Shown piece by piece: positions 12,225 to 17,265 of a stretch of 64,000 bases of DNA; position 1 is the first letter of the stretch, and each line of letters starts with the position of its first letter. The notes beneath the pieces are model-generated. The model was not told where the DNA came from. It ran no database searches and was given only the letters and a program-made list of their open reading frames with translations. Made by a program: the position numbers and the translations under genes. Origin of the DNA: an uncultured archaeon (GTDB taxonomy: Archaea > Thermoproteota > Nitrososphaeria > Nitrososphaerales > Gagatemarchaeaceae); assembly GCA_963799775.1 (NCBI GenBank), contig CAWCYD010000003.1, forward strand, positions 800,001-864,000, written 5' to 3'.

Positions 12225-13228
12225 CGACCAAGCGCAAGACTGACGGCGCGAAGGTGGTCGCCAGTCAGCCGAGCAAAGCGCTCGGGTGGCTCTTGGAGGA
12301 GGACGAGCCTTCGATCAGGTATCTCGCCCTGACCCAGGTCCTGGGAAGAGCCGACGGCGACCCCGAGGTCAAGGCCGCCAAGAGGACGATCGCGAAGCAG
12401 GGGTGGGCGGCGCAGATCATGGCGAAGCAGAAGCCGGGCGGCTGGTGGGTGCACCAGGAGAACCTCTATCGCCCAAAGTATCTCTCGACCAACTGGATGC
12501 TCCTTATCCTCTCGGACCTGGGCATGACGAAGGAGTGCCCGAGGATACGCAGGGCAGCGGAGCTCTGGAGGGACCGGTTCTCAAAGGCCGACGGCGGGTT
12601 CGGTTCGGACGGCTCCAACAGGAGCCACCTGTGCATCGCAGGGAACACCGCCAGGGCGCTCATCAAGTTCGGATACTCGGACGATCCGAAGGTCAAGAGC
12701 GGGCTGGACTGGCTCGTGAGGAACCAGGCGGAGAACGGCGGATGGTCGTGCTTTGGGTCGGGAGGGAACCTCGACTCGTGGGAGGGCATGAGCGCGTTCG
12801 CGGCGCTCCCGATGGAGAAGTGGAACAAGAGCATCAAGAGGTCCGTCGAGAAGGGGGCGGAGTTCTACCTCCGCAAGACTCTAGACCAGCAGGGCGGACG
12901 CTACGAGCCGTGGTACAGGTTCCATTACCCGGTGCACTACTACTACGACCTCCTCGTGGGACTGGATTTCATGACGGCTCTTGGCTACGTAGATGACACG
13001 CGGCTCGACAAAGCCATCGCCCTTCTCAGGGAGAAGAGAGGCGAGGATGGGAGGTGGAACCTCGATGCTGTCCATCCCGACGTGGAAGGCGGGATGGCCG
13101 ATTGGTACTCGAAGCACGCGAACCAGGCGCCCACTCCTTTCGCGCTCGAGAAGCCGGGGCGTCCTAGCAAGATGATAACCCTGAGGGCGATGGTCGTCTT
13201 GAAGAGGATGGGCGAGGCGCCCAGCTAG
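12221..13228 (+). CDS. Prenyltransferase/squalene-cyclase-like repeat (alpha-barrel) protein
   Basis: QW-type repeats (QKPGGWW, QAENGGW, DGRW); FHYP.HYYYDLL. Confidence 0.8.
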   Translation: MTTKRKTDGAKVVASQPSKALGWLLEEDEPSIRYLALTQVLGRADGDPEVKAAKRTIAKQGWAAQIMAKQKPGGWWVHQENLYRPKYLSTNWMLLILSDLGMTKECPRIRRAAELWRDRFSKADGGFGSDGSNRSHLCIAGNTARALIKFGYSDDPKVKSGLDWLVRNQAENGGWSCFGSGGNLDSWEGMSAFAALPMEKWNKSIKRSVEKGAEFYLRKTLDQQGGRYEPWYRFHYPVHYYYDLLVGLDFMTALGYVDDTRLDKAIALLREKRGEDGRWNLDAVHPDVEGGMADWYSKHANQAPTPFALEKPGRPSKMITLRAMVVLKRMGEAPS

Positions 13229-13629
13229 TCGCTCGCCAGGAGGCGCGCCACTTTGGCTTGTATCTCGTCCCTGATCGCCCTGACCTGATCGACTGACTTT
13301 CCCTTCGGGTCGTCGATGTGCCAGTCGACCAGCTTCTTCTGCATCTTGGCCAGCATGGGCCTCGGGCAGACGCCTTCGACGGAGCAACCCATCGTGACCA
13401 CGACGCTCGCCTTGTCTATCATTCCGGTCGTGAGCATCTTGGGCTTGTTCTTGGAGAGGTCGATCCCTATCTCCTTCATGGCATCTACCACCACAGCGTT
13501 GACCTTGGGAGAAGGGACCGTCCCGGCGCTGGACGCGTCGCCTCCCAACGCCCTCGCGAAGGCCTCCGCCATCTGGCTGCGGCCCGCGTTCTCGACGCAA
13601 ACGAACAGCGGCGAACTTCTCTTGGTCAA
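13225..13629 (-). CDS. arsC: Arsenate reductase, LMW-PTP family
   Basis: FVCVENAGRSQMAE, SAGT.P, TMGC...CP and DW.IDDPKG; TTG start overlaps the upstream TGA. Confidence 0.88.
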   Translation of the reverse strand: MTKRSSPLFVCVENAGRSQMAEAFARALGGDASSAGTVPSPKVNAVVVDAMKEIGIDLSKNKPKMLTTGMIDKASVVVTMGCSVEGVCPRPMLAKMQKKLVDWHIDDPKGKSVDQVRAIRDEIQAKVARLLASD

Positions 13630-14341
13630 GGCACCCTCCTCAGGAACCTGAAGGTGAGGCCGGCCACCATCGCGCCCAGAAGCGGCCCTACGATGTAGAC
13701 CATCAGGTTCGCGTAGTAGCCCGAGAATAGCGAAGGCCCCAGGCTCCTGGCCGGGTTGAACGATGCGCCGGTCACACGGACCTATGAGCATGATCAGGAC
13801 GAAGAGCGTCGAACCGACGAGCGCCGCCTGCGCGACCGGCCGCTCCAAATGTGCCGAGGCTGTGAGGGCGGCGCACGCCAAGAGGAAATGTCCCTACCAT
13901 CTCGATGGCCACACCTGCGACCGGGCTGACCCCGGGTGCCAGACGCGTCGAACCGAGGAAGCTGGAGGCTGCCACGGTCCCGAGCGCCGTCTTGAGGACC
14001 AGGCCCGCTGCTAGGCCTCCGACAAGCTGGAAGACAAGGTAAGGGGCGACGAGCTCCTTCTTGGCCGACCCAGAGAAGCTGCTCGCGATCGTGATGGCGG
14101 GGTTGATGTGCGCGCCGGAAGACCGGCCAAAGGCCAGGATCATCGCCGCGACGGTGAGACCGAACACGGCCGAGACGAAGACAAGGCCGAGAATGGCCGG
14201 GAGGGACAAGAGAGAGGCGATGATGACAGAGGCGCACCCTACGAAGACGAGGGTGAACGTCCCTACCATCTCGGAGAGGAGCTCCTTCCGACGCCCGACC
14301 GAGGTGAGCGTCGAGAGACCCAGGGCCCTCGTCAAAATCAT
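13626..14341 (-). CDS. MIP-family aquaporin/aquaglyceroporin (two apparent frameshifts); start approximate
   Basis: E.VGTF, SGAHINPA and, in a shifted frame, TGASFNPARSLGP. Confidence 0.85.
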
Positions 14342-14417
14342 TGTGCGCGTCATAGGAGCTTCGTTACGCAAGAGCAACAACTCATCGGCCAGATCTTCTG
14401 GATTCGAGTAGGCGAGA

Positions 14418-14657
14418 TTACTGACTGCATTCTCCCTTGTACTTGCCGTCTGTCTTGACGACGAGGCCGTGGATGACCAGCCTCCGGACCACCCTCGAGA
14501 CGATCTCCTGGTGAAGGTTGGTCGCATCGCGGACCTGCCCGAAGGTGACGGGTGTCGTCGAGTTGCATATCACGCGGCACACTTGCGATTCTCTCTCGGT
14601 GAGCTCGACGCAGTCCGACTCTACGGTGCATGCTTCTCCGCAACACGCTAGCTCCAA
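14418..14657 (-). CDS. Small Cys-rich winged-helix protein, putative metalloid-sensing regulator
   Basis: N-terminal CCGEAC; wHTH-like TFGQVRDATNLHQEIVSRVVRRLVIHGLV; TATA-like ATAAATAG at 14691-14684. Confidence 0.65.
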   Translation of the reverse strand: MELACCGEACTVESDCVELTERESQVCRVICNSTTPVTFGQVRDATNLHQEIVSRVVRRLVIHGLVVKTDGKYKGECSQ

Positions 14658-14721
14658 AGCGGTCGAAACAGGGCGCTGAGGCCTATTTATTGACTCACCA
14701 GGTTAGCCAATGAAGCAAAAT

Positions 14722-14759
14722 TGGCGGGCCCGGAGAGATTTGAACTCTCGATCTCCAGC
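14722..14759 (-). tRNA. Orphan tRNA 3' half (positions 39-76, Arg-type acceptor) with encoded CCA
   Basis: GCTGG AGATC GAGAG TTCAAAT CTCTC CGGGCCC G CCA followed by ATTTT; no 5' half directly upstream. Confidence 0.9.
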
Positions 14760-14784
14760 ACGTCCTCGCGTTCGGCCACACTTG

Positions 14785-15429
14785 CTAGAGCAACTCTGCT
14801 AGCTGCACGAGCTTTCTACGTTTCTCGGGATGATTGAAGCCGATTCTTCGAGCGTATAAGCCAAGATTTCTTCTGTTGAATATGTCAAGCTCGTAAGCTT
14901 GCGACCAGTTTCTTCTGGTTGGTTTTTCACGAGAGTAGATTGCGCTTCGAATTCCGAAGGAGTCCCAAAGAAGCGTCGCTACGCTCTTCAGGCCAAGCTG
15001 GTTAGTCGATTTTGCCCGAACCTTGCATTTCGATATGATCGGCGAGAGATATACGTCACCATCCCCATCGAAAAATGATCGAAGCCACCTCGCCGCTGTC
15101 AGAATATTGAGCGAGGCGAAAGGAACGACCCAATTGCGTCGACCGAATGGCCCATATCGCATGATGTCAATTGCCATTGCTTTCCCATAGGCCCTAATCA
15201 CTCCTTCGGTTGGCCTATCGCGAGCTATGACGCCATATTCGAGTCGGACATGATCAGCGAACAACTTGCGAATAGATGCGTTTGGCTCCGCAAGTTGGAG
15301 AAGATAGGTCCATTTGGGATTTCGCTTTCGGTATCGGCTGCAGCACACAGTTCCATCAGCGCATAGCATTCCGTGCAAGGACGCTCTTCTCGGTGTGAGA
15401 AGTGGAAGAAAATCTGCTCGGCTGTGCAC
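14785..15429 (-). CDS. Free-standing two-motif LAGLIDADG homing endonuclease (intein/DOD-like)
   Basis: ASLHGMLCADG and RWLRSFFDGDG motifs, C-terminal IGFNHPEK; no intein splicing termini; visibly lower GC than flanks. Confidence 0.88.
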   Translation of the reverse strand: MHSRADFLPLLTPRRASLHGMLCADGTVCCSRYRKRNPKWTYLLQLAEPNASIRKLFADHVRLEYGVIARDRPTEGVIRAYGKAMAIDIMRYGPFGRRNWVVPFASLNILTAARWLRSFFDGDGDVYLSPIISKCKVRAKSTNQLGLKSVATLLWDSFGIRSAIYSREKPTRRNWSQAYELDIFNRRNLGLYARRIGFNHPEKRRKLVQLAELL

Positions 15430-15490
15430 AATAATCTATCGCTGCCGAGTATTTCACGGCCACCGTCAAGTTTCAACACTCACCGGCTAC

Positions 15491-15496
15491 AAAAAA
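15491..15496 (-). terminator. Oligo-T terminator after tRNA-Arg
   Basis: TTTTTT two bases after the discriminator base. Confidence 0.6.
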
Positions 15497-15497
15497 G

Positions 15498-15592
15498 CGG
15501 GCCCGGCCGGATTTGAACCGGCGACCCCCAGCTTCGCAGGCTGACACACCCAGCATGGTTTGATGCCCTGATCCGTACTAGGCTACGGGCCC
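15498..15592 (-). tRNA. tRNA-Arg(GCG) with a 19-nt intron at position 29/30
   Basis: GGGCCCG acceptor; anticodon loop CT-GCG-AA (anticodon 15537-15535); T arm GCCGG-TTCAAAT-CCGGC; intron 15560-15542 forms a BHB motif; followed by C-T6. Confidence 0.93.
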
Positions 15593-15614
15593 CAAGCCCT
15601 GTCGAGATATGACA

Positions 15615-17265
15615 CTAGTTATGTTTTCCAGATGCCGAAGTCGCTTCTTGTAGCCTGTTGGCGACATTGGCGATCCCCGCATCCAAGACATAGGGACCTA
15701 GCCTCGGACCCTTCTGCGCGCCGAGCAAGATGCCGTATACCGCGGGGAAGAACTCGCCAGCCTGGAGGCCGCTAGCCCTCATCGCGCCGAAAGCCGCGGT
15801 CTGCACGTCGTCGGCAGTGTGCACCTTGGCGAGGGCTGCCGCGAACTCTTCTATCGACTTTCTTTGCTTCTCGGATAGCTCTGGGAGCTCCTGTTCCTGA
15901 AGAAGCGATGCCGCTCCCTCCCTCTTGGCCCATGCAGCTGCCCACCCCATCCTCTTGACGAGGTCAGGGCCCGGGGCTTCCTTGATCATCCCATAGTTTG
16001 TCAGTCGCTTGGAGACGTACTCGACGAGCGAGCCTTCCGGCGCGGTCGAGGCCAGCTGCGCGAGGAGCCTGTAGGGAACGTGGATGCCCGGCTTGGCGGG
16101 GACCTTGAGGAGATTGGTGTATTCGTAGAGCCCCCGGAGCCGCGCGTCCTTCAATGCATTGGGGTCCTCTTCTTGGAGAAGTAGTAGTCCTCGAGCTCGT
16201 CGAACTCGTCCATGTAGACGGGGACGTCGTCCACCGAGATGCTCCTCGCCCCGACGATGCGCTTGAACATGAGGAGCCTGACGCTCTCTGGAGACGCGTA
16301 CGTGAGCCAGTCGTGGATCGTGATGACGTTCCCGACCGACTTGCTCACCTTCCTGCCACTCTTGTCCTGGAACATCTCGTACCTTGCGTGATAGGGGGGC
16401 GGATGTCCGAGGATGTTCTCGCTTATCCAGTCGTTTATCTTGACTGACTCTGCGATGTCCTTGCCGTAGGCCTCGAATCGGATGTCCAGCGCGCCCCACC
16501 TCGCCGCGAACTCGCTCTTCCATATCAGCTTCCCCTCTCCCTCCGTCACCTTCCTGTCGCCCTCGTGCCCGCAGCCCGCTATCACCTTCTCACCAAGCTC
16601 GGCGCTCGCGCACTTGTAGTGGACCGTCTGCGCGACCGGGTCATACGAGGAGACCACGGTCGTGTACAGCCTGCCGCAGTTCTGGCATATCGGGGTGTAA
16701 GGCAGGACCGTGAGGTACTTCTCCTGCCCCGTCAGCTCCTTGATCATCTTCCCCACGAGCTGGGCGTTGTCGAGTATCTTCGTGATCTGAGGGTTGAGGA
16801 GCCCGCTCTTGTAGACCTCCGCCCCGCTCTTGAAAGTGTAAGGTATGCCCAGGTCGTCCAGCGCGGCCCTTAGGAGCCCCCCCGTGTGGGCGCCGAAGGA
16901 CTTGTGGCAGCCGAACGGGTCGGGGATGCGCGTGACTGGGTGTGCGATGTAGTCCTTGAGCCATTCAGGGAATCCGGCCGGGACTTCCTCAGGCCGTCGA
17001 GGTCGTCGGAGTAGGCGATCAGCTCCGACCTGTAGCCTTGGGTCTCGAGCGCGAGCTTGATGCCGTAGCTCCTTATCGCGTCGCCGACGCTCCCGATGTG
17101 CGGTATCCCGGAGGCGCCGAGGCCGCTCTCGACGCGTAGGAGCGAAGTGTCCCTGCCAAGGGCCTTCTCGCGCTCCAGGAGCTCGCTTGCTACCCTGTCG
17201 AGCCACGTGCCCCGTCCGATGACCTTGGTCTCCTGCGACGACACTGGACGGACCAGACGCTCCAC
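15615..17265 (-). CDS. lysS: Class I lysyl-tRNA synthetase (two apparent frameshifts, ~16985 and ~16170)
   Basis: ASGIPHIG, YSDDLDGLRK, CQNCG, FEAYGKD, KVSKSVGN and GPRLG across three ORFs. Confidence 0.93.

Follow-up and report, generated by a model that had tools for sequence, protein, structure and literature searches.

A free-standing LAGLIDADG endonuclease gene between a complete tRNA-Arg(GCG) gene and a displaced tRNA 3' part in an uncultured archaeon of the Gagatemarchaeaceae

LAGLIDADG homing endonucleases make site-specific double-strand cuts at targets of ~20 bp. Mobile open reading frames (ORFs) of fungal mitochondria that encode LAGLIDADG or GIY-YIG endonucleases bring with them a replacement 3' end for the gene they enter, as described for atp6 in Allomyces macrogynus and for atp6, atp9, cox2, and nad3 in Glomus sp. 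(PMC3630166). Free-standing endonucleases also spread by intronless homing, in which break repair gives preferential inheritance with co-conversion of flanking markers, and the cut site may differ from the insertion point; SegB of phage T4, a GIY-YIG enzyme, targets a tRNA intergenic region (PMC2988022). In collaborative or trans homing, the target of a free-standing endonuclease is the site at which an intron without its own endonuclease inserts (PMC2988022). All 39 group I introns that PMC6125680 reports from archaea lie in rRNA genes, and insertions of the integrase type into tRNA genes have been proposed to be linked to intron gain and to scattered tRNA fragments (PMC3293823). Here we describe a ~770-bp cassette at a tRNA-Arg(GCG) gene in a 64,000-nt stretch (the window) of contig CAWCYD010000003.1 (GCA_963799775.1), from the 2.47-Mb genome of an uncultured archaeon of the Gagatemarchaeaceae. 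Its only gene codes for a two-motif LAGLIDADG protein, and the arrangement is comparable to that of the fungal mobile ORFs.

The cassette and its endonuclease gene

On the minus strand, the locus consists of the end of lysS, 22 nt, tRNA-Arg(GCG), a C and a T6 run, ~60 nt, an ORF of 214 amino acids (aa), 25 nt, an orphan tRNA 3' part, and T4. The class I lysyl-tRNA synthetase gene lysS (15615..17206) is the upstream neighbor. The resident tRNA-Arg(GCG) gene (15498..15592 as pre-tRNA, with no encoded CCA) has its 3' part, positions 39–73, at 15498..15532. One C after the tRNA is the T6 run (15491..15496), a likely terminator, and a related genome, G005, has T5 at the same place. The endonuclease gene (14785..15429) has a GTG start and a TAG stop and is preceded by a TATA-like box, GAAATACT (15448..15455), a putative promoter 19–26 nt before the start codon. 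A 25-nt spacer (14760..14784) separates the stop codon from the displaced tRNA-Arg 3' part (14722..14759), in which positions 39–73 occupy 14759..14725 and CCA occupies 14724..14722. An earlier note on this DNA had placed the tRNA, the T6 run, the two-motif ORF, the 25 bp, the 3' half from position 39, the CCA, and the T-run, and had listed the blocks that the two 3' halves share and those in which they differ; both accounts are correct to the base.

The resident tRNA scores 48.2 bits in the Rfam tRNA family (RF00005, gathering score 29). ARAGORN identified a 76-nt tRNA-Arg(GCG) after in-script removal of a 19-nt intron, because of which it miscalls the anticodon on the raw window. The gene is therefore complete, as previously claimed, with the addition of an intron that the earlier note did not mention. 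Among ARAGORN calls for the host genome, the GCG anticodon occurs in the resident gene only. The intron (15542..15560) is non-canonical, following position 29 in the 5' strand of the anticodon stem, with an uncertainty of ±3 caused by a TCA repeated at the boundary. It was recognized by comparison with the intron-less allele of the congener G021, and an intron of similar sequence is found at the same position in G013, G011, G017, G015, G005, G008, and the metagenome locus L043. The intron was considered as a relic of a deleted cassette and rejected, as it has merely a vague likeness to positions 39–48.

The ORF matches Pfam PF14528 (LAGLIDADG_3; E = 4.7e-11, 43.2 bits, cut-off 22.5), with the second domain alone matched (residues 113–197). 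Motif 1 reads LHGMLCADG and motif 2 reads FFDGDGD. In an alignment of 17 sequences, residues F120, D121, G122, D123, G124, and D125 of motif 2 are invariant, and the DG of motif 1 is kept in every row that covers it. An AlphaFold2 model (predicted local distance difference test [pLDDT] 90, predicted template modeling score [pTM] 0.88) has a two-domain alpha-beta-beta-alpha-beta-beta-alpha fold, and its top Foldseek matches in the PDB are intein endonuclease domains and I-DmoI (probability 1.00, E = 8.5e-9 to 1e-7). By motifs, profile, and modeled fold, this is a two-motif monomeric LAGLIDADG homing endonuclease, with cleavage and homing predicted.

The ORF is free-standing, with no intein and in no recognizable intron, because its frame is stop-bounded (a 216-aa open frame), it is single-copy in the host genome, it lies between a tRNA and a tRNA fragment, and no Rfam intron family was matched. 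The earlier note had likewise reported neither intein termini nor an integrase in the insert; stops close the frame on both sides, and of the ORFs between the repeats, that of the endonuclease alone matches a family. The TATA-like box is common to homologous metagenome loci, with similar spacing in L040 (AAATACT ... TTGTG) and as CATATAC in L042, L043, and L048, which suggests that the endonuclease gene has its own promoter and a leaderless mRNA.

The resident and orphan 3' parts have in common GCTGG, the T-loop sequence TTCAAAT, and the acceptor strand CGGGCCCG. They differ in the variable loop (GGGTC in the resident part versus AGATC in the orphan) and in the T stem, where the change is compensatory in both strands (GCCGG/CCGGC versus GAGAG/CTCTC). 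From variable loop to CCA, the orphan part is identical at 35 of 36 nt (E = 5.7e-11) to the host's own tRNA-Arg(CCG) gene ~36 kb away, and this is therefore no chance match; the 5' part of that gene is the same as well. A 3' part identical to the orphan is the working half of tRNA-Arg(GCG) in the congener G018 and in locus L040. The orphan is a real tRNA piece, probably of local stock.

It is extremely improbable that the orphan part is itself in use, either after the splicing of a giant insert behind position 38 or as one piece of a trans-joined split tRNA. It does keep a perfect T arm and CCA, and when joined in-script to the single 5' part it gives a valid tRNA-Arg(GCG) by ARAGORN, as the earlier note had expected of either half. 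The complete tRNA, however, ends in a T6 run before the ORF, and no Rfam group I intron or other RNA family was matched across 14000–16200 at E values up to 10 (bulge-helix-bulge motifs at the boundaries were not rigorously searched). Elsewhere in the host genome, a search found neither a second 5' half having the same acceptor and anticodon arm nor a stretch complementary to the 18 nt in front of the orphan part. A split tRNA, for which a complementary 5'-half gene elsewhere had been named as the sign, is therefore unlikely. The homologous remnants of L044, truncated to the T loop, and of L040, with 11 nt left, show that a working piece has not been conserved. Minimum free energy folding yielded no cloverleaf for either the 886-nt stretch as a whole or the 96-nt pre-tRNA and was uninformative (z = −1.5 and −1.0).

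Homologous loci and their distribution

A protein search returned 23 proteins, all metagenomic; except for the window's own, they are 46%–77% identical to it. A scan of metagenomes yielded 11 loci, and homologues in the readable ones have 45%–56% identity. The loci compared are the window, congener G021, and metagenome loci L040–L049, with identical sequences counted once. The sequence upstream of the ORF is readable in eight (the window, G021, L040 [identical to L041], L042, L043, L044, L048, and L049), and in all eight a tRNA-Arg(GCG) gene, in most cases close behind lysS, ends on the same strand 40–80 nt ahead of the ORF. Rfam confirms the tRNA in five metagenome loci (L042, L043, L044, L048, and L049); the two-intron tRNA of L040/L041 is missed by Rfam and was read by eye. 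The downstream side is also readable in eight (the window, G021, L040 [L041], L042 [L045], L043, L044, L046, and L048 [L047]), each of which has a tRNA-Arg 3' remnant 0–60 nt past the ORF stop. The remnant starts at position ~29–32 in L042, L046/L048, G021, and L040, at 39 in the window, at 48 in L043, and at 54 in L044, where it is cut down to the T loop; the L040 remnant is 11 nt of anticodon loop and stem only. The order of host gene, inserted 3' end, endonuclease ORF, and displaced 3' end is found in the window and in seven further distinct loci.

Three of the proteins carry traces of the same layout. The N-terminus of P0008 is a read-through of a GAGAG-type tRNA, the C-terminus of P0018 reads through a remnant of the GCCGG type into a flank resembling G013's, and five residues in the tail of P0003 fit a GAGAG-type remnant. 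The homologues are thus tied to tRNAs, a point on which the earlier note had made its reading depend, both by the tRNA-Arg(GCG) gene in all eight upstream-readable loci and by the P0008 read-through. Resident and displaced T stems differ in all six loci in which both can be read. The pairing is GCCGG resident with GAGAG displaced in the window and L043, GAGAG with GCCGG in L042 and L048, and GAGGG with GCCGG in G021 and L044.

Replacement of a tRNA 3' end that leaves a displaced partial copy is the classic footprint of an integrase, and the anticodon loop is a known integrase crossover site. The cassette could in that case be a non-autonomous or decayed integrative element, with its tyrosine recombinase elsewhere or lost, the replacement 3' part as attP, and the endonuclease as mere cargo. 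Several remnants do start at the anticodon loop (positions 29–32), the congeners G016 and G024 have vapBC-like cassettes and short tRNA 3' remnants at the same tRNA end with no endonuclease, and in Caldiarchaeum a tRNA fragment and an intron-bearing tRNA flank an insertion that encodes a recombinase (PMC3293823). We nevertheless consider this origin unlikely. No recombinase, or any gene besides that for the endonuclease, was found between the repeats in nine distinct loci with protein divergence down to 45% identity, and no larger integrase-bearing island, of which the cassette might be a deletion remnant, was found between the repeats in relative or metagenome loci. The sole cargo is always one endonuclease family in one orientation and at one spacing; passive cargo is unlikely to be so constant at one tRNA gene, as the linkage would not last. 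The longest identical blocks between the window's two 3' parts are only 9, 7, and 5 nt, with room in principle for a 6–8-nt overlap region, and both T stems are internally consistent, so there was no crossover inside the T arm. Purifying selection on the endonuclease (below) also speaks against the integrase origin.

The gene has a patchy distribution. A profile search found close homologues in 2 of 97 representative genomes of the family, those of the window and G021, which corresponds to 2 of 23 congeners. The endonuclease gene was undetected by DNA comparison in 40 related genomes, in which lysS is usually followed by tRNA-Arg(GCG). A class-wide search gave weak matches only, in 13 of 401 genomes including the window's own. 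None of 128 pattern matches from a genome-contig scan with the protein alignment was confirmed, and a scan of viral contigs returned two partial matches only (30%–33% identity), with no viral vector in that collection. The endonuclease tree has three well-supported clades, with L042 and L043 in the same one (68% identity). Ratios of nonsynonymous to synonymous substitution rates (dN/dS) are 0.09–0.17 in four pairs within one clade, values by which the endonuclease is under purifying selection. The L047/L048 endonuclease is frameshifted after the second motif region; in the near-identical L046, the 156 residues covered are intact. The scattered occurrence, the decayed copy, and the purifying selection are signs of a selfish but working gene.

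A second alternative is a single ancestral entry beside a pre-existing tRNA fragment or tandem copy, followed by vertical descent of an immobile gene with many losses, in which case the tRNA differences would reflect ordinary allelic recombination. Such a history would suit the position of all loci at the same genomic place after lysS, the deep divergence of both host flanks and endonucleases, and the decay of the L047/L048 copy. It would need very many independent losses to leave the gene in just 2 of 23 congeners and 2 of the 97 genomes of the family, and the dN/dS values speak for a working protein. It is also countered by the variation of remnant starts and types within one endonuclease clade, by the mosaic of flank and tRNA in L042 (below), and by the absence of tandem tRNA-Arg(GCG) genes from relatives among the loci read. 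We regard it as quite improbable.

Distant free-standing LAGLIDADG_3-like ORFs (20%–40% identity) were also observed near tRNA genes, at ~150 nt or less, in 6 of 13 loci examined (L030, L037, L050, L053, L054, and L056), in either orientation. The tRNAs are tRNA-Met (CAT, with initiator and elongator not typed), tRNA-Pro, and one unclear call. In L053 and L054, the ORF lies between the tRNA-Met and a 17–18-nt copy of that tRNA's 3' end.

Proposed homing mechanism and the history of the two halves

We think it likely that the gene codes for a free-standing homing endonuclease specific for lysS-linked tRNA-Arg(GCG) and spreading by break repair, and that 15532..14760 is a minimal selfish cassette. 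The enzyme would make a double-strand break in a cassette-free tRNA-Arg(GCG) allele. A copy with the cassette would serve as repair template, its homology provided on the left by the tRNA 5' part and on the right by the trailing tRNA remnant or flank. Repair would copy in a working tRNA 3' part, sometimes the whole tRNA and its intron, together with the endonuclease gene, and would leave the former 3' part stranded downstream of that gene. Anatomy, family-wide tRNA linkage, lack of a recombinase, patchy distribution, one decayed copy, and purifying selection are what was observed; cleavage itself is inferred.

The target probably includes the anticodon arm, where the two isoacceptors differ, because displaced positions 44–76 are identical to those of the host's own tRNA-Arg(CCG), which would otherwise be cut too. 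The resident copy could be immune through the 29/30 intron, through the variable-loop and T-stem changes, or through both. In L042 and L048, the resident copy has an intron at 37/38 and the remnant has none. The remnant starts at ~29/30 in L042 and at 39 in the window fall at the intron sites of the other allele type, in these two cases only.

The alleles available for such exchange were compared in 16 congeners, in which the tRNA-Arg(GCG) T stem is GCCGG in 11, GAGAG in three, and GAGGG in two. GCCGG occurs with the 29/30 intron in G013, G011, G017, G015, and G005, with a canonical 37/38 intron in G002 and G009, and without an intron in G001, G014, and G010. The GAGAG type is that of G018, G016, and G008, and the GAGGG type that of G021 and G012. 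The sister tRNA-Arg(CCG) has GAGAG in nine of nine congeners. With three T-stem types and at least three intron positions, tRNA-Arg(GCG) is unusually polymorphic within the genus. The earlier note had taken the resident half for a specially recoded version, and this view does not stand, as GCCGG is the ordinary endonuclease-free allele in 10 other congeners. The host's tRNA-Arg(CCG) gene (G000:C3:779587-779719) has a ~50-nt D-loop intron, the first ~30 nt of which resemble the D-loop intron of the L040 tRNA-Arg(GCG) (~2830-2975), and in the tRNA-Arg(CCG) of G022 the same site is occupied by an intron. It seems that Arg isoacceptors share introns.

Which half came in was examined by comparing flanks with tRNAs. 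In L042, the lysS flank is closest to G011 (86%), the whole tRNA is of the G016 type (99%), and the remnant is of the GCCGG type, like G011's own. This fits an imported tRNA and a displaced native half, with the entire tRNA converted, and the P0018 tail (remnant and G013-like flank) also fits a displaced half that is native. For the window, the T-arm identity between the orphan part and tRNA-Arg(CCG), together with a downstream regulator gene common with G018, would favor a native displaced half; the direction is not settled because all flank identities are 80% or less. The claim that an incoming half displaced the host half downstream fits L042 and P0018, is contradicted by L043, and is unsettled for the window.

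Several observations weigh against homing with a simple replacement of the native half. In L043, the flank is closest to L040, G011, and G017 (83%–86%). The last two genomes, which have no endonuclease gene and match the flank at 83%–84%, also have tRNAs 97% identical to the resident one. Contrary to what simple replacement predicts, it is the resident copy of this locus that has a native look and the remnant that seems foreign. The window's resident tRNA is 97% identical to that of G013 and is of the type (29/30 intron, GCCGG) that is the common congener allele, which is neutral or unfavorable and leaves the incoming half unsettled. Remnants that begin at positions 29–32 (L042, L046/L048, and G021) would keep most of a target in the anticodon or T arm. 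Reads yielded no cassette-free allele from the same population for comparison: a soil-metagenome DNA run contains 0.17 of the sampled words, and reads of three runs gave three 151-nt contigs identical to the window (depth 2) and many fragments of relatives, none joining across the cassette. Lastly, pairs of a PIN-domain toxin and an antitoxin (vapBC-like) lie between tRNA-Arg(GCG) and a short 3' remnant in G016 (L012 338-992) and G024 (L017 2291-2901), with the remnant ~0.7–1.1 kb downstream of the tRNA and no endonuclease. By these cassettes the tRNA end is a general insertion hot spot at which duplication of the 3' part needs no such endonuclease. A cyclic history, with invasion by one allele type, loss of the endonuclease, and invasion by a lineage with the other type, would reconcile all loci, and both resident/displaced orders occur within one endonuclease clade.

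Further irregularities were observed at this tRNA gene in endonuclease-free genomes. G016 (L012), G017 (L010), and G018 (L011), whose resident tRNA types differ, have in common a degenerate tRNA-like remnant ~20 nt after the tRNA. It consists of an anticodon-loop piece, a T-loop-like stretch, and an acceptor strand within the first 60 nt, and may be the footprint of a lost cassette. In G008 (L013 ~2228-2250), the first 20-odd nt of the tRNA after lysS are followed by unrelated sequence, and a complete tRNA-Arg(GCG) with the 29/30 intron and a GAGAG T stem is on another contig (L075); this is a rearrangement with its breakpoint inside the tRNA gene. The 1.1-kb gap between lysS and tRNA-Arg(GCG) in G018 contains a 302-aa open frame (L011 2266-3171) with two LAGLIDADG-like motifs by eye, with no Pfam match at E values up to 0.01 and no match to the endonuclease profile.

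The lysS 3' end and the tRNA are collinear in congeners. In the window, lysS is split over two frames (16150-16530). The ORF that matches Pfam PF01921 (tRNA-synt_1f; 16151..17206, E = 2.9e-81) stops at 16151, and the C-terminal part is in an overlapping ORF (15615..16523); this is either a real frameshift or an assembly indel error. The first host gene past the cassette is a small winged-helix regulator ORF (79 aa; 14418..14657, minus strand) with Pfam matches to MarR_2 and TrmB, both below cut-off. A homologous stretch occurs ~1.1 kb after the tRNA-Arg(GCG) of G018. A downstream flank common to the window and G018 was looked for by eye and rejected, as there is no likeness past the CCA and T run and the regulator gene ~1 kb on is the sole match. 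Downstream of the regulator, also on the minus strand, are genes for a MIP channel (13772..14527) and an LMWPc/ArsC-like phosphatase (13225..13881), and the three together (13225-14657) form an arsenic-resistance-like trio 3' of the cassette.

Significance and comparison with known systems

If the enzyme cuts cassette-free alleles, this would be a chromosomal archaeal homing system with a tRNA as host gene, made harmless by a spare part and not by splicing, a strategy documented so far for protein genes of fungal mitochondria. It would offer a mechanism for odd intron positions, for compensatory stem differences between close species, and for the origin of orphan tRNA halves. Monomeric LAGLIDADG enzymes are the usual raw material for engineered meganucleases, and the family would add a compact (~200 aa) monomeric member with a defined, highly conserved natural target. 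Even if no cutting occurs, insertions clearly have a hot spot at this essential, single-copy tRNA gene.

A wider interpretation is possible but in our view doubtful: that these loci represent a type of archaeal selfish element that has not been described, in which free-standing LAGLIDADG genes carry a working replacement for the part of a tRNA gene that their homing displaces and drive the turnover of tRNA alleles, introns, and fragments, possibly in tRNA-Met and tRNA-Pro as well. Through repeated invasion and loss, species of this genus would exchange entire tRNA-Arg(GCG) alleles, with intron position and T arm passing together. Protection from the endonuclease would come from the short tRNA introns and the compensatory T-stem changes, and orphan fragments would feed split or fragmented tRNA genes. 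The idea is suggested by the diversity of T stems and introns, the reciprocal resident/displaced pairs, the remnant of G016, G017, and G018, and the distant ORFs linked to tRNAs.

Full-text searches of freely accessible articles, without their supplements, returned no description of an endonuclease cassette that swaps tRNA halves in archaea. The word LAGLIDADG is absent from the available main-text sections of a catalogue of integrated elements in Thaumarchaeota (PMC6563490). The protein shares its monomeric two-domain fold with I-DmoI, I-Tsp061I, PI-PfuI, and the Tli VMA intein (Foldseek probability 1.00). The template modeling score for I-DmoI, normalized to the target, is 0.70–0.74, and identity to archaeal intron and intein enzymes is 12%–17%. 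Those enzymes lie inside rRNA introns or inteins, where insertion is harmless, whereas this one is free-standing and would be harmless because of the complete tRNA in front of it.

The locus resembles integrase-type elements such as that at the tRNA-Thr gene of Caldiarchaeum, in which the tRNA is rebuilt with element sequence and a partial copy lies at the other end (PMC3293823). Those elements encode a recombinase and usually have kilobases of cargo, in contrast to ~770 bp with an endonuclease gene only. As in collaborative homing, a free-standing endonuclease gene adjoins a gene with an intron, by which the resident allele could be protected. The introns of the present case are not of group I but short archaeal tRNA introns spliced by proteins. 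SegB is likewise a free-standing endonuclease gene lodged in a tRNA gene region, but it is a phage GIY-YIG enzyme, and the description of it in PMC2988022, as far as available, includes no duplicated or replaced tRNA half.

The closest likeness is to the fungal mobile ORFs, which have the same succession of gene core, inserted divergent 3' end, free-standing endonuclease ORF, and displaced 3' end, with inserted and displaced ends that differ, a patchy occurrence among relatives, and a horizontal origin proposed for the inserted end (PMC3630166). There are differences. The host gene is a tRNA in an archaeal chromosome and not a protein gene of an organelle, the recoding consists of compensatory T-stem changes and introns and not of synonymous codons, the ORF is in no case an in-frame extension of the host gene, and the resident copy of L043 looks native. 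The new part would be the strategy of the mobile ORFs applied to an archaeal tRNA gene.

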